This document shows positions 1,524-40,984 of a stretch of DNA of 64,000 nt, piece after piece. The stretch lies in the NCBI RefSeq assembly GCF_048403405.1, contig NZ_CP183129.1; one strand, written 5' to 3'. A program made the translations under genes and the position numbers. This DNA comes from Escherichia coli (GTDB taxonomy: Bacteria; Pseudomonadota; Gammaproteobacteria; Enterobacterales; Enterobacteriaceae). Under the pieces are notes generated by a model. That model saw nothing but the letters and a program-made list of their open reading frames with translations. It ran no database searches and was not told where the DNA came from. Position 1 is the stretch's first letter, and each line of letters starts with the position of its first letter.

Positions 1524-2471
1524 TCAAGCATTCAGGATGGCTAGCGCTAAGCTCCTAAACCTGGAGTAAACCTCATCCCATGTGATCTTTCGCTCTCCAT
1601 ACACCATTGGCGAAACAAACTGCTGATAGCGCATCTGGTAGAGAGGATTGTTCGCCAACTCATCCAGTCCCATTTTTAGCTCATCAACTGGAGACGCGCA
1701 AAACTGCGGGTACTGGTTGCCGTAACGCTGAATGTCCTGCTCAATAGTTTGTTGAACAAAATCAACGAGCAGACTCATATCAACATGACTCGTCTCAACA
1801 ATACAGTTTGTATCGTAGATATGACGTACCAGCGATGCATCATCAAATCGCTCAACATCTCGCACAACTGCCGCAGTACGACGTAACATCGCCACCAGCT
1901 TTTCAGCCTGTGTGCTAATGATAGTTGCGCATGGAAACGCTGAAACAATAGCCGCTTTTCCCGTGATCCCTGTTACCAGTGAATGAATATCCCGTAATTC
2001 AGAAGGCTCCAGTAACTTCGCTTCCATCAATTCCAGCCGGATAAAAGGACGCAAACAAGGTGCCTGCACCACTCGCTGTGGATAACGAACAGGTATGTCA
2101 TTATAACGATATTCATCCCGCGTCACTTTTGGGTAATCATCATCAAAATTGAACACACCCGATGAAGCTATTGCACTGGAAACTGCCTGAACAATTTCTT
2201 TACGGGTATTTTTTCGCTGAGTGCGGGAAAGTGCCTGAAATGCATCCTTAGGCACCAGTTTGATATCCACATCTTCCGACATGCGATTAAGTGCGACACC
2301 TGATTTTGCCAGAGCGGTTCCTCCGGCAAACACCAATTGATGAGTATCGAACACCAGAGGTTTAAGCAATTGCAAAAGCTCAACGATATAGTGATCTTTT
2401 TCCACAATTGCGACAGACTCAATACCAAGCGCGTCAGCCACTTCAGAAAAAAGAGTGGTTAAATCATCCAT
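1524..2471 (-). CDS. AbiEii/DUF1814-like nucleotidyltransferase (putative type IV toxin)
   Basis: 315-aa ORF; N-terminal nucleotidyltransferase-like motifs (FAGGTAL ... SEDVDI); 8-nt overlap with upstream small gene. Confidence 0.6.
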   Translation of the reverse strand: MDDLTTLFSEVADALGIESVAIVEKDHYIVELLQLLKPLVFDTHQLVFAGGTALAKSGVALNRMSEDVDIKLVPKDAFQALSRTQRKNTRKEIVQAVSSAIASSGVFNFDDDYPKVTRDEYRYNDIPVRYPQRVVQAPCLRPFIRLELMEAKLLEPSELRDIHSLVTGITGKAAIVSAFPCATIISTQAEKLVAMLRRTAAVVRDVERFDDASLVRHIYDTNCIVETSHVDMSLLVDFVQQTIEQDIQRYGNQYPQFCASPVDELKMGLDELANNPLYQMRYQQFVSPMVYGERKITWDEVYSRFRSLALAILNA

Positions 2472-2859
2472 TTAATCTGCTGTTCCCTACAGATAATACG
2501 CGTTTAAAACGCCGGGGGGTTTTTATCTCGGGTGAAGCTGGGATCTGCGTAGAAGTACCGCTATTGTATGCCTGCGTTGCGCCAGCAAAACGATAGCGTA
2601 CTTTCAGGCGTTCCAGCGTTTCGACAATCACCGCTGAAGAGCCTCCGGGAGCCGCTGGCATTACCTTGCCTGTAATACCGTTCCGCCGTGCTTTGGTATA
2701 CACGCCATAACCAACCTTCAACAGTTGCCCTTCCCTGACAAGCTCGCGCAATACCCGACCAACCTGATCGTAGCCTGCAATATCTTTAAAGTCGTCACGA
2801 GTGAATACGTAACGTTTAGAACGTTTCAGTCGTGACTGAATGCGTGCTTTTATCGTCAT
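2464..2859 (-). CDS. AbiEi-like antitoxin / small DNA-binding partner of the nucleotidyltransferase
   Basis: Basic small protein overlapping the downstream nucleotidyltransferase gene; start chosen at ATG 2859, preceded by AGGAGG; ORF track allows start up to 2928. Confidence 0.45.
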   Translation of the reverse strand: MTIKARIQSRLKRSKRYVFTRDDFKDIAGYDQVGRVLRELVREGQLLKVGYGVYTKARRNGITGKVMPAAPGGSSAVIVETLERLKVRYRFAGATQAYNSGTSTQIPASPEIKTPRRFKRVLSVGNSRLNG

Positions 2860-2928
2860 ATTCGCCTCCTGAGTCATTGCATAAAGAGTAGCAAAAATAC
2901 GACATTTTAGATAGCAAACATACGACAT

Positions 2929-6138: not shown

Positions 6139-7092
6139 TCAACCACGGGATAATCTTGTTTCTATTCCCTGAACTCTTTCGTCTATTAACCTTTCAATAA
6201 CAGATATTTTATCTGACTTGTAAAATTCAACCAGAAAATCCAGACGCTCTTTATGCGTATCACTGATAGACTCCCGTTCCCGTTTTTCAGAAAGTTTACG
6301 TCTGAAGTTTTTTTGGTAAAACGCTTTATTTATTTTCTTTACCGCTTTCTGCTGGAGATCATCATCCGCTGACCATAAATCCAGCATGGAATAAACGGCG
6401 TGATAGGTTTCTACACTATTAAGTGGTTCCGGGATCTGAACGGGGTCCAACTGGTTTCCTATATTACTACCGTGCTCTTTCTGGAATTTATTAATGTAAT
6501 TATAAGCCCATATACAGACTTCGTCATTATCCTCATTAAGCCAGCGTAATTTTATTCTCTTATGTTCATTTGCCCTCCAGAATACAAGCCTCTCATATAG
6601 CCACTGTCTCATCAACGGTGCCTGATTAGTCTCAATATTAATATAGTCCAGTAATGCAACGATGATTGAGTATCTTTCGCTATGGCTTGCAGGAGAATCT
6701 GTTATTCCGGCTTTCTGATACCAGTTAATGTTTAAATTTGTGCCCAGCTTTTCGTTAATTGACTCCATACAGCGGTAATCAAGACACATCACGCCCCATA
6801 GCCAGAACGTCGCTCTTTCATTTTCTTTTAACCAACTAAAATATTTCTCCGGCAGAAGCATCGTATTAATCGACAGCTCCAGTGAGCGAATAAAATTACT
6901 TCGCTGAATGGGATCGGGATACCCGGCCTCGAGGGCTGTATTAATAATTCTCTCCGAAAGAGATGTATCTGGATTGTTCCCGTCAAACGCAAATTGATTT
7001 GCTCCCTGAATGTTTTTCCTGATGTACCAGAAAAGAAACCTGCTGGTTCGGATGTCCTTCACTGCTATTGATGAGCGCACATTAACGGCCAT
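6139..7092 (-). CDS. hypothetical protein, AT-rich orphan
   Basis: 317-aa ORF in strongly AT-rich DNA; no family recognised. Confidence 0.4.
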   Translation of the reverse strand: MAVNVRSSIAVKDIRTSRFLFWYIRKNIQGANQFAFDGNNPDTSLSERIINTALEAGYPDPIQRSNFIRSLELSINTMLLPEKYFSWLKENERATFWLWGVMCLDYRCMESINEKLGTNLNINWYQKAGITDSPASHSERYSIIVALLDYINIETNQAPLMRQWLYERLVFWRANEHKRIKLRWLNEDNDEVCIWAYNYINKFQKEHGSNIGNQLDPVQIPEPLNSVETYHAVYSMLDLWSADDDLQQKAVKKINKAFYQKNFRRKLSEKRERESISDTHKERLDFLVEFYKSDKISVIERLIDERVQGIETRLSRG

Positions 7093-7683: not shown

Positions 7684-8298
7684 ATGAAACTGAATGAACG
7701 ATATGGCAAGCCTAATGCACACTATATGAAACGTCTGGAAGAGATTACCCGTTATGCGATGGATGATTACGCCAGAATACTGGCTTTCAGAGTGGATTTA
7801 TTACTGCCAGTGGATAATAGCCATAAAGGGTATGACTCAGCGGTTATTACCCGTTTTATAGCCTCACTGAAAGCGCAGATAGCCGCATATTTACAACGGC
7901 GCAGGAGAGACGGTAAACGTGTTTATCCCTGTAAGCTGCGATATGCATGGGTAAGAGAATTTGGTGAACTGAATGGCAACAAGCATTATCACATGCTGTT
8001 GCTGGTTAATCGGGAAGTATTCAGAAACACCATGCTGAATACGGAGAATTCAGCGCAACCTCGCGGATTGCTGGTGGGAATGGTGGCGCGGGCATGGGCT
8101 GTGGCGCTTAGGCGTACCGGAGATATGGCAAATAAAGTCCCCTTTCATTTACCGGGCGTCTCTTATGAACTTGATCGCAGAAATGGCACAAATACGGACT
8201 TTTTCCGCAGCTACATATATCACATCAGTTATCTGGCGAAGGAGTACACCAAAAACCACGATGACGGTGAACGTAACTTTGGTTGTAGTCAGGGATAA
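7684..8298 (+). CDS. YagK/YfjJ-family (inovirus Gp2-like) protein
   Basis: 204-aa ORF resembling YfjJ/YagK island proteins; sits beside an AlpA-like gene as in CP4-type islands. Confidence 0.55.
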   Translation: MKLNERYGKPNAHYMKRLEEITRYAMDDYARILAFRVDLLLPVDNSHKGYDSAVITRFIASLKAQIAAYLQRRRRDGKRVYPCKLRYAWVREFGELNGNKHYHMLLLVNREVFRNTMLNTENSAQPRGLLVGMVARAWAVALRRTGDMANKVPFHLPGVSYELDRRNGTNTDFFRSYIYHISYLAKEYTKNHDDGERNFGCSQG

Positions 8299-8415: not shown

Positions 8416-8634
8416 ATGAGCAATCAACTGAATACCGATACTGACCTGATGAATGACAAACTGGTGACGATGGCATTTATTACCACGTTTACTGGCCTGA
8501 CTGACAAATGGTTTTATAAACTGATTAGTGAAGGCAAGTTTCCAAAGCCTATCAAACTGGGGCGTAGTTCCCGCTGGCGGGAAAGTGAAGTTAAACGCTG
8601 GCTGACGGAACGTATTGAAGAATCCCGCTATTAA
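8416..8634 (+). CDS. AlpA-family phage/island transcriptional regulator
   Basis: Small HTH protein (…FITTFTGLTDKWFYKLISEGKFPKPIKLGRSSRWRESEVKRWL…); true start may be the internal Met at ~8449. Confidence 0.65.
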   Translation: MSNQLNTDTDLMNDKLVTMAFITTFTGLTDKWFYKLISEGKFPKPIKLGRSSRWRESEVKRWLTERIEESRY

Positions 8635-8835
8635 TCCCCTGACACTATCTCTACACGCTTTACCCGTAACGCTATATCAGTGAGCGCCTGACAGGACCGT
8701 TGCGGTGCATCTATCGACGCGTAACTTCATTATACCCGGATGAAATACATTTCGTTTAACGTTGTCGAAAAATAATTAACCGGGGAATAGCCTCCTTATT
8801 TAGCAGGAATTCCCCGGATGCTGCTACAGGTAAAA

Positions 8836-9621
8836 TTAGGAATTAAATGTCCAGCTCCCCGTATCGGTCACAATATCAGCTTCAATGATACGGTCACACT
8901 TCATATATTTGAACGTAGCCACATCACCGAATTTATATTTGGCTGGCAGGGTTCTGTTACCGACGCTCTCCATTTTACAGTTCCCTCTGTTTACCCGAAT
9001 GGATTTCAGCACCACGTTGTCATCAGTGATAGTGAGCTGAATAACACCATATTTGGTATTCCAGCCTTCATTGCTGACGGAGCTGCCGAACTGAACTTTA
9101 AACGGTGGTGTCGTAGATTGCTGTGCCTGCTGTTGCTGAGAGGGATCAGGTTTATTAGCCTGCTGGCTACCAACGCCATTAATGCCATTCTGAAGGAGGC
9201 TTCTGGAAACCTTAATGGTACCCGGCTTGCATGATACTGTGCTGGTTTCCTGCCCCATTGCATTCATGACAGTGTAATAAGCATCACCTGTACCATCATA
9301 TTCTGAGTAATTGACTGCAACCGCGCCTTCGATATCTTCATTTTCTCCACGTAATGTGAAAGAAGCGGTTCCTGCTCCCGGATTAGCCGCCAGAATCTGT
9401 TTCGCTTCGCCGGAAGGAATATCCAGTTTAATAACAGAGCCGCTCTCTTCGGAGTCACCGCCAGGATTTTCAAAACTGATATAAACGGTATTGCTGACGT
9501 GGCTGAGTGTCATTTGCTCGCCGTTATCAAGCATACATTGCAGGTCATAGGCCCCGACTGCATAAGCAGGGTGGAATGCAAATAAAGATACAAACAATGC
9601 AGGTATAATGATTAGTTTCAT
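8836..9621 (-). CDS. secreted protein of unknown function
   Basis: 261-aa ORF with an N-terminal signal-peptide-like segment (MKLIIIPALFVSLFAFHPAYA) and a Gln-rich linker. Confidence 0.5.
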   Translation of the reverse strand: MKLIIIPALFVSLFAFHPAYAVGAYDLQCMLDNGEQMTLSHVSNTVYISFENPGGDSEESGSVIKLDIPSGEAKQILAANPGAGTASFTLRGENEDIEGAVAVNYSEYDGTGDAYYTVMNAMGQETSTVSCKPGTIKVSRSLLQNGINGVGSQQANKPDPSQQQQAQQSTTPPFKVQFGSSVSNEGWNTKYGVIQLTITDDNVVLKSIRVNRGNCKMESVGNRTLPAKYKFGDVATFKYMKCDRIIEADIVTDTGSWTFNS

Positions 9622-9632
9622 TAAGCACTTCC

Positions 9633-10645
9633 CTATCCAAAAAAATGGTCCCAGGCATTACCAGCCCACTCGATAAGTTTGTCTTTACCCTTACGGGTAA
9701 GCTCTTTGACAGGCTTTGGTAACGGAAAAGAATCAATAACGTCGTCGAGTATCCCGGAGATTACGCTGCCGAAGCCGTTTTTTGCTTCCGTCTTGACCTC
9801 TTCGGTTTTGAACTCATCCTTAAACTGCGAAGCCGTGCTACTTTTAGCCCGATCAGGCAAAGCCCGAATAATAGTCTCTACCAGACGAAGAATGTTGTAG
9901 CCCTCATCGGCGGAGACAGGTGTCACCGGATAGTGCGTAAAACCAAATCGTTCAGTAATGTAGGCTTCTTTCTTTTCGATGTTGATGCGCTGTGCAGGAG
10001 ATGGCTGATGCAGATGAGTATCCCACTCGCGGAATGGCTCAATTTTATCAACCTGGTTAAGGACGAATAAAACGCGCTCACCCCCACCAGCAGGGAGCAG
10101 AACATTGTTGTAGAAATGCTCATCCGCAGAAAAGGCCCGATCGTCACCTTTTATTACCCACAGGATGAGATCCAGGGAGGGAAGCAAATTGCGGTATAAA
10201 TCTTCATACTCCTATCCCGCCGGGCATTCTCACCGACACCAGGTATATCAATTATCTTCAGCGAATGTTTTCCGAAGCGTATATGCAATTCCTGAACTTC
10301 ACGAGTACATGCCTCAACGTCGCTAACTGCACAAACCTCCCCTTTAAACAGCGCATTACATACGCTGCTTTTCCCCGCGCCAGTTTTTCCCATGGCACCA
10401 ATCACGGGTTCATAGTCGATGGCTTCACTGATTTTGTTCAACAGCTTTTCCCGCAGTGGCTGAGGGAAAATATCAAGAATATCCCTGATGTCGGGTATGT
10501 GCGGTGTGCTATCACCTTTTTGCTCGTTGCTACCATTACGTTCTGGAAATATATTGCTCCACATTCCCAAAATCCCGCCTTCCCTTCTGGTGACGCCACT
10601 GGCATCAGTAATCATCCGGCCTTCGCCCTTTACCGGGTCATCCAT
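9633..10645 (-). pseudogene. YeeP/YfjP/YkfA-family GTPase, frameshifted
   Basis: G1 P-loop (GAMGKTGAGKSS) and G3 (DIPGVGE) in ORF 10154..10645; G4 (NQVDK) in overlapping ORF 9633..10187 in another frame. Confidence 0.6.
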
Positions 10646-10684: not shown

Positions 10685-11368
10685 TTACTCTCTGAAGGTC
10701 TGAATTACGTCACTTATGAAACGAAAGTGAGGGAGGGCTGAAATAAACTCTTCACTGGCAGTCAGAGCATCAAGTTCAGGCTTTCTGCGGAAAGAGGTAT
10801 CCAGAACGGTTACGGCGTTAACGTCTTCCATCCGAAACACCTGTAAATTTCTGGTGCGGGTAGCAACAAGAAACCAGTTTTTGGACTGAAATATCAGACG
10901 GCGGGGAGCTACTGCTTCGTAGCTTTTACCGTTAACCAATAATGTAACGGCGCGGTAGTCGCGGATAGCTTCCGCCAGTTTCAGAAAACAGGCAGTCTGC
11001 GTGACGGGAGAAGATAATGCCCCATGCCCAATAAGACACGGCGATACGCCGGAATTGCTGGCAATCAACCGGATCAACTTGCGGTTCTGAGCCGGAATGA
11101 TTCCTGAAATTCCTGAATTACGTATAAACGCAAATGTATTGGGTAAGTGCTCCCGGCCTGTTTGGCGGATAAGTCGGTAACTTCCGCTGCGATGCTCAAG
11201 ATCCAGATGGATCAGGCGTTGCTGAAAATCCCGCTGTAGGGTGCGTTCTGAGACACCAAATTCATCAGCTAATACTTTAAGCTCCAGAGATTCACCAGCC
11301 AGTAAGCGGCTGATAATGACTGATAGCCTGACAGACAGGCGGTCATGATGATCATGCTGTGTTTTCAT
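10685..11368 (-). CDS. HTH-WYL domain transcriptional regulator (YfjR-like)
   Basis: N-terminal HTH (LKVLADEFGVSERTLQRDF) followed by a WYL-like region; start set at internal Met 11368. Confidence 0.55.
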   Translation of the reverse strand: MKTQHDHHDRLSVRLSVIISRLLAGESLELKVLADEFGVSERTLQRDFQQRLIHLDLEHRSGSYRLIRQTGREHLPNTFAFIRNSGISGIIPAQNRKLIRLIASNSGVSPCLIGHGALSSPVTQTACFLKLAEAIRDYRAVTLLVNGKSYEAVAPRRLIFQSKNWFLVATRTRNLQVFRMEDVNAVTVLDTSFRRKPELDALTASEEFISALPHFRFISDVIQTFRE

Positions 11369-15770: not shown

Positions 15771-16091
15771 GGAACTAAAACGGGTCTATTTACAGGGCCA
15801 TCAGTTAGAAAATGTGGCGTACAACGATAAACAGTTTGGTTGCATAAAAAAACGTAAGAGTTGGTTATCATTCTTTCAACGTAAGGGAATTACAGTAGCG
15901 GTAGGAAAAACTGATAGGTTATTTTACATTGAATTCAAAAAACTGTTTATTTAAGCCGTTAGCGATAAGTTTCATTGTAATTTAGCCGGAAAATGTTCCA
16001 TTGGGAAAACTGAATTGAGACTAATATTATATTAGATGAGAATATTTCTGATGTAAATATACCGAGGAATGGAGGCATCCCTCGGTATATG

Positions 16092-18167
16092 TTAATTCAC
16101 ACCCAGCGCCTTATAAACCGCATCAACCGGGTCTGAGTAAAAACTCACCTGAAACTTGGTAAATAACTCTGCCGGAACCGTTGGAATATCCATAGCCGAG
16201 GACATCGGCAACAGAACCCGTTTTGCGCCGCTGTCGAAGGCGAGCTGTAAACTGGCGGCAAGATCCTGCACCGGGTTAATTACTCCACCAAGGGTCATAC
16301 TGCCCAACACCACCATCTGTTCCTGCACCGGCTTTGCCAGCAATATCGAACATAAAGCGATAAGCGCAGCAAGACTGGTTGCGGTGCTAGGGCCAGTATT
16401 ATGCAGTTCAACGACATGAAGGTGATATTCATGATCAGAGAATTTCGCTGCCGCGCTTACCCGATTCAAATTGCCTTTGAAGTAATCGAAACCGACGCGG
16501 ATAGCTTCTTTCGCGGAGGTATTTGAACCCAGGCCCGATACACTATGCTTACCATTACCGGCAGTCATCTGCGTTTCAAAACGATACAGCCCGGTCATAC
16601 CGCTTTCTGCCTGAGTGACCAAATGCACAACGCCCGGCTTTGGCATTCCGGCAGGAATTAGTTCGCTGCCGCCCTGTTCCGGTACGCTTACAAAAAACTC
16701 TTCCAGCGTTTCGTTATCGATGTAGCTAAAGTTCACATCGAAGAACTCCAGGCCGCCCAGTTTTTTAAGTTGCTCTTTCACTCGACGACGAACTTCCATC
16801 GCATAGGTCAGGCAGACTCGTACATCTTCTTTGCTGTACGCGCCATCGGGATGCATGAGTTTTAACAACCCCGACACTGTACGTCGAACAGCAATCACGT
16901 CACGCTGATTGAGGTTATTTCCCAGCTTGAAGAATTTATCAATTGCATCGGAGAAGCTACGTTTACGCATCTCGCGCATGTATTCAGCGAGATAATCCGT
17001 AATCAAACCATAGCGATTGGTGAAAAATTCCGGGCGCATCTTAGGAATTTCCCAACCAGGAATATAGGCATGGAAGCGGTCAAAAAATGCAGTATCAATC
17101 ATCGCATCCGGGAACGGTGCTAGCAGATGGCTGGTTTTGACCAGTGTATCTACGCTCTGATTGATGTTGCCAACAAACACCATGGAGGCTTTGCCTTCAA
17201 TGGAGTCCCGACCACGAGAGAATGAGCCTGATGCCATGTAATCCTTCATGATCTGCACGCCATCTTTGTCTTTGAAGGTGATCCCTGCCACTTCATCAAA
17301 CGCGACGACGTCCCACATTCCCACAAGACCAATCTGCCGGCTGGCCATGTTGTAAAACAAGTTCGCCACCGTGGTTTGCCCGCCAGATACCAGCAGGGAG
17401 TTAGGAGAGCACTCTTTATAAACATGACTCTTACCTGTACCACGTGGACCAAGCTCGCAGACGTTATAGTTGTTTTCCACAAAGGGAATCATGCGAGTAA
17501 TCAGATGCCACTTGGTACGCTGCTCAATATTTGCAGGTTCCATCCCGACCGAACGTAACAGCACATCAATCCACTGGTCGCGATCAAACTGCTTGCGGGC
17601 TTCAAATACCTCGTCCATATCCATATTTGGCATCTGGATCGGCTTCAGTGTGAACAGCGAGAAAGGAGACGTTTTTTGCCCCTCTTCATAAAAGTAGTTC
17701 ACGGTGATCATGCACCAGATGCCACCAGTCAGCAGTTTCTCGTTGTCTTTCACCATCTGCGACGGCACCAGGGCATCTTTAATGCCAAGGTTAGAGAGCT
17801 GGGCTTCGTAAACGTCTTTCTTCTGATTTAGCTTTACCGTGACCTTATCGATAATCTTGTAAGAACCACGCTCGCGAATTAGTGATTTCACTTTTTCTGC
17901 TTCATCCGGGCGGACGTAGTTATCAGAAAGAATACGCTTAACCGACTGTAGCCCCTGCTCGACAACCTCATCGTCATCGGAGGCACAGTACATACCGAGT
18001 AGATATTCCAGTACGTAAACCGGAACATTCGCCCCTTCTTTAAGTTGCTTAGTCAGATCCTTACGCACCACGCGACCGCGAAAGTGCTGATTCAACAATG
18101 AATCCAGGTCCTGAGCCAACACAGAGGCCGTTTCCATGTTACTGGCTGAGTTATCCTGCTGTTGCAT
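16092..18167 (-). CDS. brxL: BREX BrxL (Lon-like protease-domain ATPase)
   Basis: 691-aa ORF with Walker A (LGPRGTGKSH) and C-terminal Lon-protease-like domain; last gene of the BREX operon. Confidence 0.85.
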   Translation of the reverse strand: MQQQDNSASNMETASVLAQDLDSLLNQHFRGRVVRKDLTKQLKEGANVPVYVLEYLLGMYCASDDDEVVEQGLQSVKRILSDNYVRPDEAEKVKSLIRERGSYKIIDKVTVKLNQKKDVYEAQLSNLGIKDALVPSQMVKDNEKLLTGGIWCMITVNYFYEEGQKTSPFSLFTLKPIQMPNMDMDEVFEARKQFDRDQWIDVLLRSVGMEPANIEQRTKWHLITRMIPFVENNYNVCELGPRGTGKSHVYKECSPNSLLVSGGQTTVANLFYNMASRQIGLVGMWDVVAFDEVAGITFKDKDGVQIMKDYMASGSFSRGRDSIEGKASMVFVGNINQSVDTLVKTSHLLAPFPDAMIDTAFFDRFHAYIPGWEIPKMRPEFFTNRYGLITDYLAEYMREMRKRSFSDAIDKFFKLGNNLNQRDVIAVRRTVSGLLKLMHPDGAYSKEDVRVCLTYAMEVRRRVKEQLKKLGGLEFFDVNFSYIDNETLEEFFVSVPEQGGSELIPAGMPKPGVVHLVTQAESGMTGLYRFETQMTAGNGKHSVSGLGSNTSAKEAIRVGFDYFKGNLNRVSAAAKFSDHEYHLHVVELHNTGPSTATSLAALIALCSILLAKPVQEQMVVLGSMTLGGVINPVQDLAASLQLAFDSGAKRVLLPMSSAMDIPTVPAELFTKFQVSFYSDPVDAVYKALGVN

Positions 18168-18177
18168 AACGCCTCAC

Positions 18178-20775
18178 TTAAAAGAAGTCATCCTGAAATG
18201 CCAGGTCGATCGTGATCGGGTAGCGACCATACTCTGTTGCGCTGTCCGCATTCTCCAGGATAAGAACATACTTGTTTTTACGATTGAATGCCGTCCCCAT
18301 GAGTTTCATGGTTACATCGCGGGTGCGTTTACCCATATCTTCGTTATCACTGTCGAAGCATACTGTTTCCGTGCCGGAGACGACCTGGTTGTTTTCATCG
18401 ACGATAAAGATATTCAGCGTGCGCGGCTCATTTAAATCATTCACTGCCGAAGTCTGAATAAAACCAATTTTATCAATGCTGTTAACCAGTTTGATCACCT
18501 GATCCCGCGCAACGACGGGCACGGGCTGCCGCTGGGGTTGCTTCTCAGCCGCTTTCTTTTCAAGCGCGCGAATCTTCAACACAGGAACACACACTTCCTG
18601 CAGCATGGCTCCGCCATGAACGAAACGAGCACCCCCTACGAAGTGGAAACGCTGTACTCCTTTGGGTAACAGGAATTCACTTTCATCGCTTGCGCCTGCA
18701 GTATCAGCCAGTTTGCCGTGCCAGCAAAATTCACTTTCAGGCAGTTGATGGCCTACAATAAAACGCTTATTCGCTTCAATCGTGTCTTTGGCTTTACTTT
18801 CCAGCTTCGTTTTATCCTGCTCCACCAGCGCTTGTTGTTGGAACAGGAAGCCGTGATCGGCGGTAACAAAAATTCGGCTGGCATTAAATCGGCTACGCAG
18901 GCGTGAAACCAGATCTTTTAGCTCAGTGATTGCACTTCGGCAGGCCTCAAACGTTTTATCTTCCGTTGCAGCCTTATCACCCATGGCATCTATAGTGTCG
19001 TGCCAGATATAAACTACGGAAGCGTTGCGGATTTGCTCGTTCACTTCCTGGTTATTGGCGTTCTGCAAGTCCTTTGCTTTCAGCGCTACACCATTCACCT
19101 TCGCAAGAATAGCGGCTCTTTTTTCAAACCCGGAAGTGGACATCCCATCGGCGTATACTACACCAGAATTATCAGGAAGATAGCTCAACGACTCATGAGG
19201 CAACAGTGCGGCCATGCCCAGTTGGGTATAGCTTGGGAGCACTCCGGTCTGGGAGCGCAGCTCTGCACTGAAGTGCTTCTCATAGTTGATATGCCTGCCC
19301 AGCTCTTCCGCCACTTCGTAGCGCAATGCATCCGAGATCACGACAAAAACACGTTTGACCTGCGAGGTGTCAAACTGACGTTTAACATTCTCTTTATAGA
19401 AATTGCGCTGCAGGGGTATGCCGCTAAACTGCCAGGCCTGCATACGGTTTTCCGCTTCCAGCAGTTTGTTCCAGCCGCGACTTAGTTCAGTCAGATACCA
19501 ATTGCTGTATAACTCTTCGATGAATTTATCCAGTTCATGCAGGATCATCGCCCCTTTGCTGTGCACTGGTGCAGCATATTCATTGAACAAACGATAGGTC
19601 TGATCGAAGCGATAAATTTCGTCACAATAGGCCTTCCAGAACGCACCTGTATCGGGGAAATTAAACCCGTCGGTGTAACGGTTACGCAAATTCAGCAAGC
19701 GTTCTGCCTGACGAATAGCATTCCAGATAGAAAGATACTCTGGGCGGGTTTGGCTCCAGTATTTCGCACTGCGCTCTGAAACCAACGCTTTAAACGCATC
19801 TCTGTCCAGAGTGGTGCTCTCTTCCTGCAACTGTGTCACCAGACCACGGATAATAAGTTGCTCAATAGCCTCGAAGGTTTCACATTTTGCCAGTGTATAT
19901 GGTGAGCTGTAGTTGTAGTGTTCTTTTGGCTGGAGCGTCTGCTGCAAATCCTCTGCACAGTAATCGTATTCTACTTTATAGCGACGATCGTTGCGCCACG
20001 CCCCCATAAAGGCCAGTGACGAGGCCCGACCAGCCGCGGTAGCCAGCACATTTTTACTCAACCAGTCACGATGTGCTTCATCACCCTGCGCCCAGAGATC
20101 GGTACAGAACAGTTTCAGAAGCAGATTTTCCATTGAAGGAGATTCAGACTGGTATCCCAACTCAAGGCGAAGAATTTCCCAAAGTACCTCATCCAGGCCA
20201 AGCTTCGTCAGTACGGCGAAAGTGTTCTCGAGTGCGCTATCATCTTGCTGCCGTGCTGCGACAAACTGCTGAACCAAAGCAAATAGTATTTCTTTGGTTT
20301 CGAAGGTACTGGCCCCGACCACCACCGCCAGCATTTTCTTATCGAGAGAGTTTTCCGTTTCGCGCTCGGTGACCCATCCCTTCAGGATCTGAGTTCGCTT
20401 AACGGTAAAGAAGGCTTTGCGAAGCTGAATATGTTCGCGTAAACCGAGTTGCGGGATACCCAGAGAATTCAGGGTGATCGCCGCATAATCAGCGTGGAAT
20501 TCGGTACTATAGAGGCGGATATCCAGCAACCAGTCCTGCTCGCGAGCAGGAACCTCACAGGTGAAATAGAGTAAAAATTTCTGCTCAGGCTCGTCGATTT
20601 CGAGTCGTTTTTTTGTTGCGAGCACAGAAACGCCACGCATATCCAGCAGCGTGACATTGTCGAGATCCAGCTCATTAATTGAATCAGTGAAGCGTTGTTC
20701 CGGGTCGTGCCAGAAGACGATACGGTTGTCGGTAAACTTCTGACGAAGCCCTGATTCCAGTTCTTTAAATTGCAT
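18178..20775 (-). CDS. pglZ: BREX PglZ (alkaline-phosphatase-superfamily protein)
   Basis: 865-aa ORF with PglZ-type motifs (…VTADHGF…); positioned between the methyltransferase and brxL. Confidence 0.85.
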   Translation of the reverse strand: MQFKELESGLRQKFTDNRIVFWHDPEQRFTDSINELDLDNVTLLDMRGVSVLATKKRLEIDEPEQKFLLYFTCEVPAREQDWLLDIRLYSTEFHADYAAITLNSLGIPQLGLREHIQLRKAFFTVKRTQILKGWVTERETENSLDKKMLAVVVGASTFETKEILFALVQQFVAARQQDDSALENTFAVLTKLGLDEVLWEILRLELGYQSESPSMENLLLKLFCTDLWAQGDEAHRDWLSKNVLATAAGRASSLAFMGAWRNDRRYKVEYDYCAEDLQQTLQPKEHYNYSSPYTLAKCETFEAIEQLIIRGLVTQLQEESTTLDRDAFKALVSERSAKYWSQTRPEYLSIWNAIRQAERLLNLRNRYTDGFNFPDTGAFWKAYCDEIYRFDQTYRLFNEYAAPVHSKGAMILHELDKFIEELYSNWYLTELSRGWNKLLEAENRMQAWQFSGIPLQRNFYKENVKRQFDTSQVKRVFVVISDALRYEVAEELGRHINYEKHFSAELRSQTGVLPSYTQLGMAALLPHESLSYLPDNSGVVYADGMSTSGFEKRAAILAKVNGVALKAKDLQNANNQEVNEQIRNASVVYIWHDTIDAMGDKAATEDKTFEACRSAITELKDLVSRLRSRFNASRIFVTADHGFLFQQQALVEQDKTKLESKAKDTIEANKRFIVGHQLPESEFCWHGKLADTAGASDESEFLLPKGVQRFHFVGGARFVHGGAMLQEVCVPVLKIRALEKKAAEKQPQRQPVPVVARDQVIKLVNSIDKIGFIQTSAVNDLNEPRTLNIFIVDENNQVVSGTETVCFDSDNEDMGKRTRDVTMKLMGTAFNRKNKYVLILENADSATEYGRYPITIDLAFQDDFF

Positions 20776-21344
20776 TATTGATTCTCAAACCATTCGACCA
20801 GTTCATGAGCGCTAGGGCAAGCAGGGTGTCTGGCAGAACTCTGAATATCAAAACCGTGATGCGTTACCATTCTCCTGGCAAATGCGGTTTTAGAACTTCC
20901 CGGTCCCTGTTTTCCTAGCTCGCGTGAAATTACTTTTAAACGATCCCATGGCATTTCAGTTGTAGCTTCAGGTAACTCTTCATTAAATGTGTCTACTTTA
21001 AGCCATTTTTTCATTGCCTCTGAATCGGCAAGAAACCAAGCCTCAACTGCTTTGACTGCGATAAACGAGATGTCGACATCTTGATGGGCAATTCGGGCCC
21101 GTACATCAGCAACAGATGCCGCATCTTCCAGGTCGGTCAGAATACAGATCCGTTCAGCACCTACATTTCTGAGCCTAGCAACGAAATTATCAACATACTT
21201 CGGTAACAGGTTACCACCACCTTTGGCATCAATAACGGGAGTTACCAATTCAAAATTATTCGTGCGCAGAAATGCAATGAACGCTGGTGAATTCACGATG
21301 ATTGACTCAGTATCACCTTCAACGATAAAACCTATTTTTACCAT
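20775..21344 (-). CDS. small TOPRIM-like protein (DUF4276-like) embedded in the BREX operon
   Basis: 189 aa; N-terminal IGFIVEGDTE and downstream ICILTDLED resemble TOPRIM Glu and DxD motifs; start overlaps the ATPase stop by 7 nt and its stop overlaps the pglZ start (TAATG). Confidence 0.6.
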   Translation of the reverse strand: MVKIGFIVEGDTESIIVNSPAFIAFLRTNNFELVTPVIDAKGGGNLLPKYVDNFVARLRNVGAERICILTDLEDAASVADVRARIAHQDVDISFIAVKAVEAWFLADSEAMKKWLKVDTFNEELPEATTEMPWDRLKVISRELGKQGPGSSKTAFARRMVTHHGFDIQSSARHPACPSAHELVEWFENQ

Positions 21345-22459
21345 GGCAAACCGCCATCAAACATATTCATCAGCCACGCGGTATCCAGTGGGATTTCCTT
21401 TTTATCAACCCCCGCATCTGAAGCATGCATCAGCTGAGTTTTCCCCTCTTTTTTACTAACAAACCACAGTTCGTCTGGTTCCAGATTGCGAACAATAGAT
21501 TCACTATGGGTAGTAATAACAATTGGATGATTCAAAGAGGCATTTTCACGCATCAATTGCACAAGTTCCCCAATGGCTTTTGGGTGAATACCGCGTTCAG
21601 GCTCTTCAATAATGGTCATCCCCGTTTGCTGTGCTCGACTCAAGATGGCCGTCATAATACAAAGCGTGAAGATGGTGCCGTCAGAGATAAGATGGGCAGG
21701 AAAGCGGGCACGAGTTCCCTGTTCTTTAAAGGTCAATACCGTTGAGCCATCCAATTTTTGTTTCTCGGTCGATACATTTTCCATCCCCGGAACGATGAGT
21801 TCCATCCACTCCAGTATTTGCTCTTTAAATTCGCTATTCGATTCGAGAGCAGCAAGCACAGAAGCAATGTTTCGACCATGACTGTCCAGAAATGTCGAGT
21901 CAGTTTTGGCGCTATCGGGCTCTTTAGCACGTAACGGATCGATGCGAAAAACAACAATATTGGTCAAAAAAGCGTACAGTTCACTTTTCCCCAGTAGCAT
22001 TAGTGCCGTCATATCTGACGAGTAGTTAGGGATTAAAGTCGCAGGGATTTCATCACTATCGCTCAGGCGAATCATAAGAGTATCAGGGTGCTTACGATCA
22101 ATATAAATATCTCCATCAATGACCAACTTTTCAGTGATTGTTGGTTTTTTATCCATGTTTTTGATCGTCAAGTCATAGGTAAACTGTTTTCCTCCCAGCT
22201 CAATTTGAAGGTGCAGTGAAGCCGTAGTCCGATTTTCCTTACGCAGCTTGTAGCAATGAATCTGCTGAAAACCGCCAAAATCACGGATTGCTTGTGTCGC
22301 CCCGGTTTTCACTACGGCACCAAAAAAAGCCAATGCATCGGTAATGTTACTTTTGCCCGCACCATTGGCTCCAGCAAAGGTGATAAATGGTGGGCTTTCC
22401 ACAAGGGAAAGCTCCGCGATGCTCTTGTAGCCTTTAATAATCAGGGGATGTTGATCCAT
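21338..22459 (-). CDS. ABC-type ATPase (AAA_15/AAA_21-like) embedded in the BREX operon
   Basis: 373 aa; Walker A (GANGAGKSN) near the N-terminus and C-terminal ABC-like H-loop region (IVITTHSESIV); start overlaps the pglX stop (TAATG). Confidence 0.7.
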   Translation of the reverse strand: MDQHPLIIKGYKSIAELSLVESPPFITFAGANGAGKSNITDALAFFGAVVKTGATQAIRDFGGFQQIHCYKLRKENRTTASLHLQIELGGKQFTYDLTIKNMDKKPTITEKLVIDGDIYIDRKHPDTLMIRLSDSDEIPATLIPNYSSDMTALMLLGKSELYAFLTNIVVFRIDPLRAKEPDSAKTDSTFLDSHGRNIASVLAALESNSEFKEQILEWMELIVPGMENVSTEKQKLDGSTVLTFKEQGTRARFPAHLISDGTIFTLCIMTAILSRAQQTGMTIIEEPERGIHPKAIGELVQLMRENASLNHPIVITTHSESIVRNLEPDELWFVSKKEGKTQLMHASDAGVDKKEIPLDTAWLMNMFDGGLPW

Positions 22460-25400
22460 TATGCCTCCTGTGGCGCACTGCCGGTGATCGCCTTGACATC
22501 CGCCAGCAGATCGCCAAATTTGCCGTAGTTAACCTTAACGCCGTCATCCAGATCAATAGTGATACGTCTATCAGCATAGTGACGCAAGCGATCGTCAAAA
22601 TTGCGCAGCTCGTTGAATTTTTTAGTCAACCCATCCAGCTCTTTTTTCAGGCGTGTGGTGGCAGCGCCCGATTCTGCATTTTTAAGCTGATCGTTAACAA
22701 GATCGATATTTCCCTGGTAGCGTGCCAGCAGCGGAACTACATATTCGGTACGCATACGTGACAATGTGCCTTCATTATAACGGTGCAGATACACCAGGCA
22801 CTCAAACGCCTTCTCTTTACCTGAGCTGAATAGCCAGTAAATTGGGCGCTTCTTGTACATCTTCATATGATCTTTCCAGAACTGGGTGGAAAGATAGCGA
22901 CGGATGGTATCCAGCGAAGACTCGCCTTTTTTCGGCTTGATTGCGTACAAGCAGAGGCTTTCGGCGATGAAATCGAGGTTTTCTTGTAAATGTTCTTCGC
23001 CCCAGACTGTGCGAACGAACTCTTTAACGCGGGAGGTAACATCGTCATCGAACCAGTCAGAATCCATTAATGGCAGGATACCATCTTCATCGGCAGGGAA
23101 GGTTTGGTAGGCGCCTTCATCTACTAATTCAGAAAAGCCTTTGTTACCTTCGTGGGCGTAGACCAAGCCTTCGCGATCAAGGGAATAGCGGCCCATCATG
23201 CAGCCAATAGCCAGGCTAAGTGAGTTTATAACCTGAATCGCCTTAAATTGGTTATATTCATCTTTTGAAATTGAGCTTAATGACTGGAAAACATTATTTT
23301 CCAATGTTATTTCTGCCAAGGCAAGATTGTTTTCGTTTAAAATATTGCATTTTTCATAAAATATTTTGTTATTATCACATTCTAGCTCATGTGTTTTGAT
23401 TAACTTTTGATAAAAAACTTCAGTCTGGTTTTTTAATATGTTTACTAGGCTGCCGTTTTGAAACGCATCCTGATTGAAGGAAAACTGATAACTATTTTCC
23501 TGCTGACTCCAATTTTCTTTAGCCAGAGAAATTAGTTCAGCAGTGTTCAAGGATAGGCTCTCAATCATTTTCTCATCAAAAAATGCTGGTAATTTACTTA
23601 TATCCCCCGGTTGATAATTTAATGTTGGAGAGATAGCCTTTATTAAAGAGATAATAATATCACTATTAATAAATGCTAACACAGGCAGGTAAAGGTCTTC
23701 ATTATTAACAAATAACGAAGACCCTGCATTGTCAAATAATGAGGACTCTGAGACTCTTGCAGATGTCTTGCTTGAGGAAAGAGCGTTCCATGTAATCCCT
23801 TTTTTAAATATAAAATCTAAATTATAGTTATGCGAACGTACCTTTCCTGATTTTTCATCGGTAAAATTTTGAATTTCCCGACCATCGTCGAACCAATTTA
23901 CGACATAATCAAGATTACCGTACCACTTTCTATATTCACCACCTTTCTGATAAGGGAACCATTTCAGACCGGATTTTTTAGCTTGAATACGATCAGTAAA
24001 ATCAAAACCGATATTCGCGAAATTAACTTCATGCCAAAAACGTAAAAAACGCTCATTATCCGCTGTTGCCATTCCAAGGCGTGTTGAGGCAATTTGAGAT
24101 ATTTTTTTATTATCAAATAAATTAACCTCACTTTCGCTGAGCCAATACGCAATCGGTGCACCGGGGATTTTTTGGAAGTCATCGGCAGCGGCAGTCTTTA
24201 AACGATCGTTTTTAACCGGAAATTCTTTTGGATATCCTTCATCATTGATATCGTCATTCTCAGTATAAGAGAATGCCCCTTGATAAGAAGGAATGTGAAC
24301 ATTTCTAAACACTGTTGCATTGGTACCAAAGGCAATTTTCATAACGCCATTGCCCATATGTACCATCGTCTCAATAGTGTATTTATCCAATATATTCGCA
24401 CGCATATTTTCATAGCTAGACAAAAACATCCATGATTGCATAGTCACCATTGAGTTGTACGCAGCATCTTTGAGCCAGGAAAAACCCCGCTCAATAAACA
24501 TCGCAAACAAATCTGACTTACTGTCCGGGAATTGTTTCTTAGCGAACTCTTTCAGTTCACCGTTCATCCCTTTCCCACCCATATACGGCGGGTTCGCCAC
24601 AACCGCATCGTAACGCTGCGCCAAAATCCACGCCTGCTGAATATACGGAATCAGCTCTGCTGCCGCTTCTTTCTGCGGGATATCACCCTCGACAGCCAGA
24701 CGATATAGTCCACCCAGGAATGTCTTCAGCGCCGTTTCATCTTCCTGCGGCACCTGAATCAGTGATCCCAGCGTTTTTGCACTAGTGAACAAAGCCAGAG
24801 TACGCATCAGTAGCTTATATTCCGCGCTGTCGGTATTGGCCAGTGACGTCCCTTGGGTAAACATATCTCCCATGCTGCCGCGTTGCGCCTGCTGATGAAA
24901 GTTCAGCTTGGTCCACAGTTCAGCGATATCCAGTTTACTTTCCTGCAGCGAAACGATATTCAGGCGAACGCCACGGCCCAGAATACGACGATCGTCCTGA
25001 CGGGCAAGCATCAGCATCGCAAAACCGGAAAGCTGCGCCGCACGGTCATCAATATCTAGGCCGAAAATATTGTTTTCCAGAATCAGCTGCGGAATGTCAC
25101 GGGTACGGTAGCCACGCTCTTCGTAAATGGCCTTCAGCACGTTATAGGCTTCGGTCAGGATATGCCCGGAGCCGCAGGCCGGGTCCAGCACCTTAATACT
25201 TTCTGGTTCAATGCTTGATGGGGTAATAGCCGCCAGCTGTGCCTGCACTTCCGGCGTTTGTTCCGCTGGCTCAATGTAGTACGGCATTTTGCCTTTCAGG
25301 CTGGAGTCCGGATAGGTTTGCAGCCACTGGCGGCCCACCGAGTTCTGCACCAGATACTGCACAATCCAGTTCGGAGTAAACAGCTGGGTAGCGGCAGGAA

Positions 25401-26112
25401 TATCTTCGCTCTTCACCACCTTGCCGATCACATCATCTTTTTTCTCGGAAATATAAAACTGATACAACCAGCCGATCACTTCGACCTGTTTCCAGTCTTC
25501 TTCAGGAATCGTGTCCACCAGCCCGCGCAGAATAGAGTCGGTGCGAGTCAGGTTATCCGGCAATACCAGTTCGATATCATCATTGACTGCTTCGAACAGG
25601 AAAGGCATAGCGCCGTGCAGCGCATGGCACTGTGCAAGCAATAGTTCACGGTACAGCTCTTCGTCACGATCGCCCGCCAGCTTCATCTCCACCAGGCGTG
25701 ATTTGTCCAGCCCAAGTGCATCAGCCACTTCCGGCACATGATCCAGAACCTCAAAACTCCCTTCCAGGGTCGGGTGAGACAGCATACGGAAACCGTGATC
25801 AAGATAGCCATGCAGCTCCATATAGCGAATAGCGCAAAAGCGGTTAAACCAGGTGTAAGCGATGTGCTCCACCAGCACGTCATAGCCCTGCTTTTCTGCA
25901 CGCTTGACCAGACGTTCACGGCGTGAAGCCAGTGATTTATCCAGCGAGAACTGACCATATCGCACACTGTCGCCAAGATCGGTTGCTTGCGCTATTTGCA
26001 GGTTGCCTTTTTTATCGGCGTCAATACCCAGCGTGGTCAGTTTTTGCATGACCGCATCGCGGAACTGTTTACGTGCCACCGGGGCGTATTTTTTGATATT
26101 TGACGTATTCAT
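22459..26112 (-). CDS. pglX: BREX PglX (N6-adenine DNA methyltransferase / specificity protein)
   Basis: 1217-aa ORF with methyltransferase motif I (LDPACGSGHIL) and motif IV (VVANPPYMGG); AT-rich central to C-terminal block. Confidence 0.85.
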   Translation of the reverse strand: MNTSNIKKYAPVARKQFRDAVMQKLTTLGIDADKKGNLQIAQATDLGDSVRYGQFSLDKSLASRRERLVKRAEKQGYDVLVEHIAYTWFNRFCAIRYMELHGYLDHGFRMLSHPTLEGSFEVLDHVPEVADALGLDKSRLVEMKLAGDRDEELYRELLLAQCHALHGAMPFLFEAVNDDIELVLPDNLTRTDSILRGLVDTIPEEDWKQVEVIGWLYQFYISEKKDDVIGKVVKSEDIPAATQLFTPNWIVQYLVQNSVGRQWLQTYPDSSLKGKMPYYIEPAEQTPEVQAQLAAITPSSIEPESIKVLDPACGSGHILTEAYNVLKAIYEERGYRTRDIPQLILENNIFGLDIDDRAAQLSGFAMLMLARQDDRRILGRGVRLNIVSLQESKLDIAELWTKLNFHQQAQRGSMGDMFTQGTSLANTDSAEYKLLMRTLALFTSAKTLGSLIQVPQEDETALKTFLGGLYRLAVEGDIPQKEAAAELIPYIQQAWILAQRYDAVVANPPYMGGKGMNGELKEFAKKQFPDSKSDLFAMFIERGFSWLKDAAYNSMVTMQSWMFLSSYENMRANILDKYTIETMVHMGNGVMKIAFGTNATVFRNVHIPSYQGAFSYTENDDINDEGYPKEFPVKNDRLKTAAADDFQKIPGAPIAYWLSESEVNLFDNKKISQIASTRLGMATADNERFLRFWHEVNFANIGFDFTDRIQAKKSGLKWFPYQKGGEYRKWYGNLDYVVNWFDDGREIQNFTDEKSGKVRSHNYNLDFIFKKGITWNALSSSKTSARVSESSLFDNAGSSLFVNNEDLYLPVLAFINSDIIISLIKAISPTLNYQPGDISKLPAFFDEKMIESLSLNTAELISLAKENWSQQENSYQFSFNQDAFQNGSLVNILKNQTEVFYQKLIKTHELECDNNKIFYEKCNILNENNLALAEITLENNVFQSLSSISKDEYNQFKAIQVINSLSLAIGCMMGRYSLDREGLVYAHEGNKGFSELVDEGAYQTFPADEDGILPLMDSDWFDDDVTSRVKEFVRTVWGEEHLQENLDFIAESLCLYAIKPKKGESSLDTIRRYLSTQFWKDHMKMYKKRPIYWLFSSGKEKAFECLVYLHRYNEGTLSRMRTEYVVPLLARYQGNIDLVNDQLKNAESGAATTRLKKELDGLTKKFNELRNFDDRLRHYADRRITIDLDDGVKVNYGKFGDLLADVKAITGSAPQEA

Positions 26113-26160
26113 ATGAAGTCCTGAAAAGGGCAGACAATGTCTGCCCTGAAAATGGGGAAA

Positions 26161-29100: not shown

Positions 29101-29775
29101 TTCACTCTGGCCTGTAGCAATACTCAGTGCCTGAGCCATCTGATCGTTTATCATCAGATAAACATCACGTTCGTCTTCCCAGCGAGACCCTGTAATGTCC
29201 GCGAAGGCTGCCCTAAAGGTATCAAATTGTCCACGCTTATCGAGCTCACGTTCCAGATGTGCAATATGTGGGAAGTCGCCACAATAACCAGCTAGTTCGT
29301 TAAAGACTTTCAGAAAGACTTTGAGTATGGCATCAACGCCATCTTCAACATTCGCACGTGAGTCAATATTGAATAATATGACATCGGTCGGATGTTGTAC
29401 CGATTTCCGAATATCAGCCAATAGCAGTGCATCATCAATTTTCTCTTCAAAGAAGGAAAGTGCATTACGAGTGACACCATTATGGCTTACTTCGCGGTTC
29501 GCCAGTAGATAGGATAAGATCTTAATGAAGTGTGATTTACCCGAACCAAAGAAGCCTGAAACCCAGACGCCTATTTTGTCAGCAAGCTGTAATCTGCCAG
29601 GGCCAGTAGCAGGGGCATATACTTCAAAGAACTGACGCAGGTGACCATCCAGCTCTCTGGTAATGACATACTCATCCAGTTCTATCCAGGCGCTTTCGTC
29701 GTCGGTCTGCTCGGCTTTAACCACGCCGTTAATATTACGTTTTAGCTGTTTCTCAAAAATTTGTTCAATATTCAT
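26161..29775 (-). CDS. brxC: BREX BrxC/PglY (large P-loop ATPase)
   Basis: 1204-aa ORF with N-terminal Walker A (GFFGSGKSHFIKIL); position between brxB and pglX. Confidence 0.85.
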   Translation of the reverse strand: MNIEQIFEKQLKRNINGVVKAEQTDDESAWIELDEYVITRELDGHLRQFFEVYAPATGPGRLQLADKIGVWVSGFFGSGKSHFIKILSYLLANREVSHNGVTRNALSFFEEKIDDALLLADIRKSVQHPTDVILFNIDSRANVEDGVDAILKVFLKVFNELAGYCGDFPHIAHLERELDKRGQFDTFRAAFADITGSRWEDERDVYLMINDQMAQALSIATGQSEESSRQWIEQLDKNFPLDIKNFCTWVKEWLDSHGNRNILFMVDEVGQFIGKDAQMMLKLQTITENLGVICGGRAWVIVTSQADINAAIGGMSSRDGQDFSKIQGRFSTRLQLSSSNTSEVIQKRLLVKTDAAIPALEAIWQEKGDILRNQLAFDTTTTATLRAYTNSREFVDNYPFVPWHYQILQKVFESIRTKGAAGKQLAMGERSLLDAFQSAAVQISADGLDSLVPFWRFYSAIESFLEPAVSRTIIQACQSPSLTEFDGKLLKTLFLIRYVDVLKSTLDNLVTLSIERIDTDKVELRRQIEASLNRLQAEMLISRIDDKFVFLTNEEKEIENEIRNIDVEFTTINKQLSTIIFEEILKNKRYRYPANKQDFDISRFCNGHPLDGANLNDLVVKVLTPLDSNYESYKGAHSNSLLMTDSKDCILICLPDEARTWQDLTMYAQTKAFLSKQSGQRPEQATLLAEKGRENSMREKTLKAQIEGLLAQADVWALGERLDKKSSSPLAIVDAACGYVIENSFSKLKLLRLSTGDVNRETHALLTVENDTQLDLGGMEESNPEAMREVDNWISMSIETHKPVYLRDILTTFGRRPFGWPEDEVKLLVARLARSGKYSFTLQGSEIALKQAWDAFNNSRRYSDLRLHKVRRHDEAQLTKAAQLMAEIAGEPFNEREEQSLVSHIRELFGRWNSELTVFKTRAESGQNPGRKEIEEGLVLLNGILNEKEEYAVIEKITAAADDLKDFSEDWDDLVSFYKNQYATWQRLSMALNGSFKANRNALDKDETAQKALQELEGIYSKARPYGELHRIIPLIETVETINQRLVEEYRSHALLQIDGHINELKQSMQEMHVPADLQHSLLHPMQQSRKKVEQNGLIPQIMEEQAEVRALQFKANERLNGWVEDQRKKVSDPKPAPQPGIIDPVVKPEPKLKKTIYVNTRKTMERAAGVTTLDNAEQVDKALEQLRKTLMDAINAGERVQLQ

Positions 29776-29787
29776 TGCTGTCGTCTT

Positions 29788-33127: not shown

Positions 33128-33322
33128 ACTGAAGAGGTATGCGGAAAACGTTGTGGATTATACCTGTCGCACGCCACCATGCAAGCGCCAGCTTGCTCGC
33201 ACCTCGCTAAGTGCTGAAATTTTCAGCATTGCATACAGCGATGTGTAACCTTTGTCACACTCCAGGCACCCCGCCCTGCCATGCTCTACACTTCCCAGAC
33301 AACACCAGAGAAGGACCAAAAA

Positions 33323-34342: not shown

Positions 34343-34345
34343 AAA

Positions 34346-34909: not shown

Positions 34910-35125
34910 TTAAAATCTCCTGAATCATCTTACCTGCTGTGATACTACGCCTGGTGGCATAATAATTTCACGTTTTTTTATTTCTGCTGATAAGAATTAC
35001 AAGGCACATCACGTTATGCGTAACATAGTAATGTAACAATTTTCTAACGTGATCTTCATCACAAATAATGACAATTAAAACCGCTTAAATGCTTCCGAGG
35101 TGTCTACCTGACCAGTGAGAAATTT

Positions 35126-36157: not shown

Positions 36158-36180
36158 GAGATAAATAAAGGAATAATACA

Positions 36181-36945: not shown

Positions 36946-37009
36946 CAGCCACCACCCTACGTGCAGCGCGAAAGCGCTGCTTTTCTGGCACTAATAAGAG
37001 ATAAAGACT

Positions 37010-38329: not shown

Positions 38330-38394
38330 AAGAATAAAATATTGTGATGTAGTTTCGGGGGAAGATTGAAGATTCCCCGACGTTGGGAGAAGTT

Positions 38395-40973: not shown

Positions 40974-40984
40974 GTCAGACGTGA

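Follow-up and report, generated by a model that had tools for sequence, protein, structure and literature searches.

An exported two-domain protein in the backbone of CP4-57-like islands of Escherichia coli, with related domains in jumbo phages

Introduction

In Enterobacterales, phage-defence systems are carried to a large extent by integrative islands of the CP4-57 kind, few of whose conserved backbone genes have been studied. A preprint (PMC12458937) portrays such elements as prophage-like and as carrying BREX and other systems, with AlpA excisionases, rolling-circle Rep proteins and "moron" modules. One of them lies in the stretch of E. coli DNA analyzed here (64,000 nucleotides of contig NZ_CP183129.1, assembly GCF_048403405.1; below, the window). 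On the minus strand of this window, at positions 8836–9621, there is a gene for a protein of 261 amino acids. The original prediction, made from the sequence alone, saw in it a secreted Gln-rich protein of two domains and speculated about surface exclusion or receptor masking.

Thus we can ask: Is this protein real and exported, does its gene belong to the defence cargo of the island or to its backbone, and what might the protein do in the cell envelope? In the literature we found no functional study of the protein itself (WP_000766852.1), of YfjP/YkfA/YeeP, of YfjR/S/T or of the gene set of these islands. The kind of element that carries the gene was known already; the exported protein family is undescribed.

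Results and Discussion

The gene and its selection

The reading frame comprises 261 codons from an ATG located 11 nt past the stop of the upstream GTPase gene to the stop codon at 8836–8838. Its product is 100% identical to RefSeq WP_000766852.1, annotated as "hypothetical protein". Of 5426 complete E. coli genomes, 209 contain the DNA of the gene, Nissle 1917, ATCC 25922 and ABU 83972 among them; the carriers include both extra-intestinal and commensal B2 strains. The family as a whole is rare, with 8 loci in about 100,000 species-representative genomes.

Pairwise comparison of the E. coli, Lelliottia and Xenorhabdus genes gave an overall dN/dS of 0.11–0.17. The values were 0.05–0.12 for the C-terminal domain and 0.11–0.18 for the N-terminal one in the same three genera, and the signal peptide had a dN/dS above that of either domain, as is usual for signal peptides. 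The gene is under purifying, not diversifying, selection, and because dN/dS is low we regard it as a real coding gene and not a chance ORF. A plus-strand ORF at 8818–9234 overlaps it. This ORF has no dN/dS support and was set aside, because the minus-strand frame is conserved with low dN/dS and is annotated in RefSeq.

Two database entries deserve a comment. The 90%-identity cluster containing our protein (1092 members) also contains the 337-aa GTPase, probably because fusion products from frameshifts or read-through, P0042 for example, distort the clustering. A 2-kb contig of a metagenome-assembled genome with the label Lachnospiraceae (L039, SFGN01000275.1) carries the GTPase gene, our gene and alpA with 97% protein identity to E. 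coli, and is most likely a mis-binned enterobacterial contig.

Export

Codons 1–21 (9559–9621, minus strand) encode a signal peptide of the Sec/SPase I type, MKLIIIPALFVSLFAFHPAYA, followed by VG after the cleavage site predicted from hydropathy and the -3/-1 rule between AYA and VG. In our rule-based check such a peptide should have a positive n-region, an h-region of about 10–15 hydrophobic residues and small residues at -3/-1. The protein has K2 in the n-region, LIIIPALFVSLFAF as hydrophobic core with Kyte-Doolittle values up to 2.85, and A-Y-A before the valine, that is, A-x-A at -3/-1. The same layout is kept in 22 of 22 aligned relatives, so the signal-peptide-like N-terminus noticed originally stands.

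The lipobox check proposed together with it was also carried out by rule. No lipobox (L-[AS]-[GA]-C ending the h-region) was found, the first cysteine being residue 29, after D-L-Q; the signal is of the SPase I type. The protein has no adhesin-like repeats, anchor or outer-membrane export signal. As judged from these sequence features, its most likely fate is that of a soluble periplasmic protein without a lipid anchor.

Two domains and a linker

The AlphaFold model of the full-length protein has a pLDDT of 73.5 and shows a beta-rich domain on either side of a disordered segment (residues 155–168, pLDDT below 50). The N-domain (codons 22–150, 9172–9558, minus strand) has nine predicted beta strands and a short C-terminal helix at residues 140–145; its nine-stranded model spans residues 27–131 with pLDDT mostly 75–92. 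The C-domain (codons 171–261, 8839–9111, minus strand) is an Ig-like beta-sandwich with an NRGNC motif, seven-stranded in the full-length model, and reached a pLDDT of 90.3 when modelled alone from 33 relatives. Between them lies a low-confidence, variable linker (codons 151–170, 9112–9171, minus strand) with QQQQAQQ at residues 162–168 (9118–9138). The two domains joined by this linker, as originally proposed, are confirmed by the model and by the existence of relatives with the N-domain or the C-domain alone.

Each domain contains an invariant pair of cysteines: Cys29 and Cys131 across 21–22 N-domain sequences, Cys215 and Cys242 across 33 C-domain sequences. This conservation suggests that each pair probably forms one periplasmic disulfide.

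The label "Gln-rich" proved misleading. Glutamine makes up 5.7% of the protein, 8 of its 15 residues fall within positions 151–170, and outside this 20-residue linker the content is 2.9%, so that only the linker is Q-rich. In the Pseudomonas relatives the Q-run is absent and the linker composition is different. There is no Gln/Asn enrichment over an extended region and no conservation of linker composition, and the protein is neither Gln-rich nor prion-like.

By structure, the N-domain may belong to the class of calycin-type small beta-barrels (lipocalins, fatty-acid-binding proteins; PDB 5hal, 6c1z, 6at8), and the C-domain is similar in overall fold to Ig-like sandwiches (ApaG, DsbD-alpha and TRAPPII Ig domains). 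The structure matches of both had Z scores of at most 8.0 and sequence identities of 4–16%. The resemblance is at the level of fold only and gives no functional inference. We have little doubt that the gene encodes a genuine exported two-domain protein.

Family searches and domain shuffling

The full-length protein matched 0 families in Pfam-A and NCBIfam at E 0.1 or better, 0 families in PADLOC-DB v2 at E up to 1, and no PDB sequence. With the C-domain profile, searches of PDB and Pfam gave nothing meaningful; in Pfam and NCBIfam there was no family common to the 33 C-domain proteins or to the fusion proteins. The C-domain did match phrog_36014 (E 9.2e-21, residues 166–259 against profile positions 24–114 of 115). 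The absence of family resemblance noted originally therefore holds for Pfam, NCBIfam, PADLOC and PDB sequences and fails for this domain. A known family unrelated to phage interaction, which had been named as the result that would speak against the first interpretation, did not emerge from the Pfam, NCBIfam, PADLOC and PDB-sequence searches.

Among 1.8 billion representative proteins, searched exhaustively, there were 142 relatives, few of them full-length or N-domain proteins and far more with the C-domain only. The C-domain family forms well over 100 clusters at 50% identity. Its stand-alone members have about 105–125 aa and are exported or lipoproteins: an export signal is present in 58 of 58 such proteins of 95–135 aa, and a lipobox in at least 26. 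The domain occurs also as tandem pairs and as the C-terminal part of fusions in which a low-complexity linker separates it from one of various exported "heads"; one of these fusions has a faint VasI-like stretch (E 0.003). Stand-alone C-domain genes from metagenomes lay mostly on contigs too short for informative context. A degenerate DNA pattern for [ILVMF]-V-N-R-G-N-C-K gave 10 matches in viral contigs, all of them spurious once translated.

The N-domain alone makes proteins of about 150 aa, and in two metagenomic proteins (P0050 and P0053) it is fused behind a third exported domain, here called "Y". In Serratia and Budvicia the "Y" gene adjoins an N-domain-only gene. The "Y" domain has about 230 aa and no Pfam match (L005 10499–11224, L046 2394–3077).

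Outside exported proteins of mobile elements and phages, lytic jumbo phages included, neither domain was found. They are two undescribed exported domain families.

Relatives in phages

The nearest relatives of the C-domain outside the islands are 115-aa exported proteins of the Erwinia jumbo phages RisingSun and Joad (46% identity); others were found in Klebsiella, Serratia-named, Aeromonas and Xanthomonas phages, and tblastn gave matches in 10 phage records. The RisingSun protein gp79 (YP_009612823.1), of the phrog_36014 family, aligns along the whole length of the C-domain with the same 46% identity. This family shares with our C-domain the NRGNC motif, the FG, both cysteines and the T-D/N-x-G-x-W ending, and its members are exported. 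Unlike our protein, they are single-domain proteins of about 115 aa without the N-domain and linker. The phrog_36014 match names a family, not a mechanism.

Structural matches of the size of the N-domain were detected by Foldseek among predicted viral structures of the jumbo phages EL, PhiEaH1 and RisingSun. These proteins, similar to the N-domain by predicted structure, have 142–157 aa (BFVD Q2Z179, W8D0I6, A0A223LHQ6). The RisingSun gp79 gene (L006 2920–3267) has virion structural genes on one side and an HNH endonuclease gene on the other.

Neighbouring genes and expression

Upstream of our gene on the minus strand lie a gene for a YeeP/YfjP-like GTPase (MMR_HSR1; 9633–10645) and, as the first gene of this three-gene module, one for a WYL-domain regulator (10685–11368). 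Downstream, on the plus strand, are a convergent gene for an AlpA-family regulator (8416–8634) and a gene for a YagK/YfjJ (inovirus Gp2-like) protein (7684–8298), both from the island backbone. Just past the stop of our gene, between it and alpA, a hairpin at 8780–8817 with a U-rich tail (8768–8817 in all, minus strand; -22.2 kcal/mol, z -2.15) is likely the intrinsic terminator of the operon; the pattern scan missed it owing to its long loop. A pattern scan of the minus strand found no promoter-like site just upstream of the gene. The 11-nt gap, the lack of such a site and the terminator-like hairpin make co-transcription with the GTPase gene probable.

The GTPase gene itself is a pseudogene in the window, with a 1-bp deletion between 10213 and 10214 in comparison with the intact 337-aa gene of ATCC 25922. 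In strain 4621 the RefSeq annotation likewise has it frameshifted. A 21-kb stretch across the module is found, to at least 80%, in at least 20 complete genomes, and identity is 100% in the five best, strain 4621 included. Our gene and the WYL gene are intact beside the frameshifted one, which argues against strict dependence of the exported protein on the GTPase. In PADLOC, the GTPase gave a weak match, by its G-domain only, to the LeoA/LeoBC dynamin-like defence GTPases; the WYL gene matched generic WYL models and resembles CRISPR-associated WYL signalling proteins.

A backbone gene and not cargo

The island of the window adjoins nanC/nanM. Down the minus strand it consists of a decayed integrase, BREX-1, an IS3 remnant, a few small genes, the WYL regulator, the GTPase and our gene; then follow convergent alpA, the yfjJ-like gene, a gene for a 317-aa protein, DUF932, RadC, YeeU/CbtA, DUF4942 and an AbiE pair. 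In ATCC 25922 the identical protein is encoded in a WYL-GTPase-AlpA-YfjJ backbone at tRNA-Sec, where the cargo is an ABC-three-component system. An E. coli plasmid has the backbone with type I R-M cargo, while Lelliottia and Xenorhabdus combine it with type I R-M, DarTG or AAA-ATPase cargo; it occurs also in Photorhabdus, Citrobacter, Huaxiibacter and "Enterobacteriaceae B14". The arrangement of WYL, GTPase, our gene, (AlpA, YfjJ), DUF932, RadC, CbeA and CbtA is kept with BREX-1, ABC-three-component, type I R-M and DarTG cargo in six genera.

Since the neighbours are the same whatever the cargo and the host, the gene belongs to the backbone of CP4-57-like integrative islands. We rejected the view that it is defence cargo: it stays while the cargo changes.

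The family is restricted to islands with integrase, AlpA, YfjJ, DUF932, RadC and CbtA. Its more distant members (39–46% identity) lie in islands of the same kind, without a GTPase neighbour, amid small membrane and exported proteins, and others in a Pseudomonas island with RadC nearby. In Serratia, an N-domain-only gene starts 3 nt after the GTPase. A membrane protein gene adjoins genes of the family in two different arrangements (L010 8840–9322; Budvicia L046 623–1132); the L010 protein has a weak DUF4234 match just under the Pfam cut-off, and the Budvicia one is alike by eye only.

The slot after the WYL regulator

In the CP4-57 island of K-12, yfjR-ypjK-yfjS-yfjT occupy the slot after the WYL-type regulator. 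Enterobacter and Plesiomonas have, after the WYL gene, a gene for a YfjT-like exported protein and then one for a stand-alone C-domain protein (L031–L034 7525–8363; L018 6444–7267; L037 14704–16616). This slot looks like a recurrent "exported-protein slot". In related islands the equivalent place is taken by Ag43, after yeeP in CP4-44, and by YfjS/YafY lipoproteins.

The K-12 genes resemble ours in the kind of island and in position, as small exported proteins after a WYL-type regulator, and the YfjT-like proteins (YfjT is PF27224) likewise have two cysteines, about 95–100 residues apart. The resemblance to YfjS and YfjT is positional only, with no detectable sequence relationship: homology was rejected at hhalign probabilities of 0.3%, 0.4%, 9% and 12.9%. 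The Plesiomonas YfjT-like protein reached 3.7% against the profile of our protein, and the 154-aa gene beside the Plesiomonas C-domain gene, considered as a split-off N-domain, turned out to be YfjT-like. Our literature search found no phenotype reported for YfjS or YfjT.

Possible functions

With its export signal, its place in the backbone and domains that turn up again in jumbo phages, the protein is a candidate for a function at the envelope, with exclusion, immunity and helper-phage interaction among the possibilities. Known exported soluble proteins of lytic phages serve mostly in superinfection exclusion or lysis control, and exported proteins of lytic phages protect the infected cell from superinfection. 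Because lytic jumbo phages keep both modules, and because the known exported soluble proteins of lytic phages mostly act in this way, we favour, tentatively and aware that it may well be wrong, a periplasmic binding protein serving as an envelope-level exclusion or immunity factor. Such a protein would bind something in the cell envelope. In the periplasm it may bind and neutralise a foreign component crossing that compartment, for which a phage tail-tip enzyme, an ejection protein or the periplasmic face of a receptor would be candidates, and it would thereby protect both the host and the island. The position of the gene after a WYL-type regulator and the modules shared with phages speak circumstantially for exclusion; taken as a whole, the analysis neither supports nor refutes the surface exclusion or receptor masking suggested originally.

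The functional analogues are T4 Sp and Imm, T5 Llp, phi80/N15 Cor and F TraT, which are likewise small exported proteins of mobile elements acting at the envelope. For our protein they provide an analogy only: homology to Sp, Imm, Llp, Cor and TraT, which act in superinfection exclusion or receptor masking, was absent in sequence and structure searches, and no homology to known exclusion, immunity or defence proteins was found in Pfam, NCBIfam, PHROGs annotation, PADLOC or PDB sequences. Many known exclusion proteins are membrane- or lipid-anchored, unlike this one. The dN/dS of 0.05–0.18 bears no sign of an arms race and counts against exclusion, and the backbone position could equally mean a role in the island's own life cycle.

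What, then, could the protein do instead? It might be a "moron" of benefit to the host, altering the envelope for aggregation or biofilm, serum or stress resistance, or envelope homeostasis. The slot after WYL/GTPase holds other exported proteins in K-12 CP4-57, Enterobacter and Plesiomonas, family genes lie amid small membrane and exported proteins in L010 and Budvicia, the carriers include the extra-intestinal and commensal B2 strains, and the purifying selection would suit such a role; however, the presence of both modules in lytic jumbo phages is hard to square with long-term host benefit, the protein lacks adhesin-like repeats, an anchor and an outer-membrane export signal, and YfjS and YfjT have no reported phenotype either, so we think this explanation unlikely. 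Shuffling of the domains raises another thought, that each neutralises a periplasm-acting toxin (a type VI effector or bacteriocin) and that the island spreads the protection as an orphan "poly-immunity" protein. Small exported or lipoprotein domains with predicted disulfides, single, in tandem or in shuffled fusions on mobile elements, form a modular architecture typical of immunity proteins in polymorphic toxin systems, and the faint VasI-like stretch (E 0.003) points the same way. Unlike the periplasmic immunity proteins of type VI and polymorphic toxin systems, though, our protein has no family match and no toxin partner: no family member examined has a cognate toxin gene beside it, and type VI/Rhs genes, where present, are outside the island. 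With copies in jumbo phages, unexpected for toxin immunity, and a generic fold match, we find this explanation distinctly improbable.

The constancy of the module could also mean that the WYL regulator, the GTPase and our protein form a three-gene system, a new defence or an island control circuit, with the exported protein as envelope-side sensor or output of the cytoplasmic GTPase. Their order and the GTPase gap of 11–12 nt are kept in E. coli, Lelliottia, Xenorhabdus, Photorhabdus, Citrobacter, Huaxiibacter and "Enterobacteriaceae B14", the Serratia N-domain gene follows the GTPase by 3 nt, and the G-domain is weakly like LeoA/LeoBC. This is quite doubtful: in the window, and in the genomes 100% identical to it, the protein is intact while the GTPase is frameshifted, the distant family members have no GTPase neighbour, the Enterobacter C-domain proteins follow WYL without an intervening GTPase, a soluble periplasmic protein has no obvious contact route to a cytoplasmic GTPase, and PADLOC matched no system. 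A carrier or scavenger of small hydrophobic ligands in the periplasm, in which the barrel-like N-domain binds and the C-domain docks, seems very improbable. The C-domain does come last, behind varied "heads" and low-complexity linkers, as a docking module would, but the structural matches are weak and generic, and metabolic or transport genes were linked in none of the contexts examined.

The exclusion or immunity reading could be extended. The N-domain, the NRGNC C-domain, "Y" and perhaps the YfjT-like proteins would then constitute a so far overlooked class of periplasmic proteins for anti-phage defence or superinfection exclusion, common to defence islands and jumbo phages and, in the islands, switched on by a WYL sensor-regulator. 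We give this wider proposal a rather small chance; if true, islands known until now for their cytoplasmic defences only would gain a further layer at the envelope.

Other genes of the island and a second element

BREX-1, the variable cargo of this island, is complete (about 16090–30990 of the window, minus strand): it has brxL, pglZ, a hypothetical gene and an AAA ATPase gene between pglZ and pglX, then pglX, brxC, DUF1788 and DUF1819, and a frameshifted integrase gene comes after it. The 317-aa backbone protein (6139–7092, minus strand), between yfjJ and DUF932, has no Pfam match; phmmer found it in two of the related islands scanned (L007 and, weaker, L041), and a similar-sized unannotated gene occupies that position in several others. 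At the far end of the island, after CbtA/YeeU, lies an AbiEii/AbiGii toxin gene with a DUF6088 partner and a DUF4942 gene (1524–2860, minus strand).

Directly behind the first island there is a second, decayed CP4-like element (about 33200–42200). It comprises CbtA/YeeU, DUF987, RadC, an antirestriction gene, DUF932, DUF905, an HTH regulator and another GTPase (WP_000010408.1). Here the GTPase is followed not by our protein but by the regulator and a protein of 225 aa.
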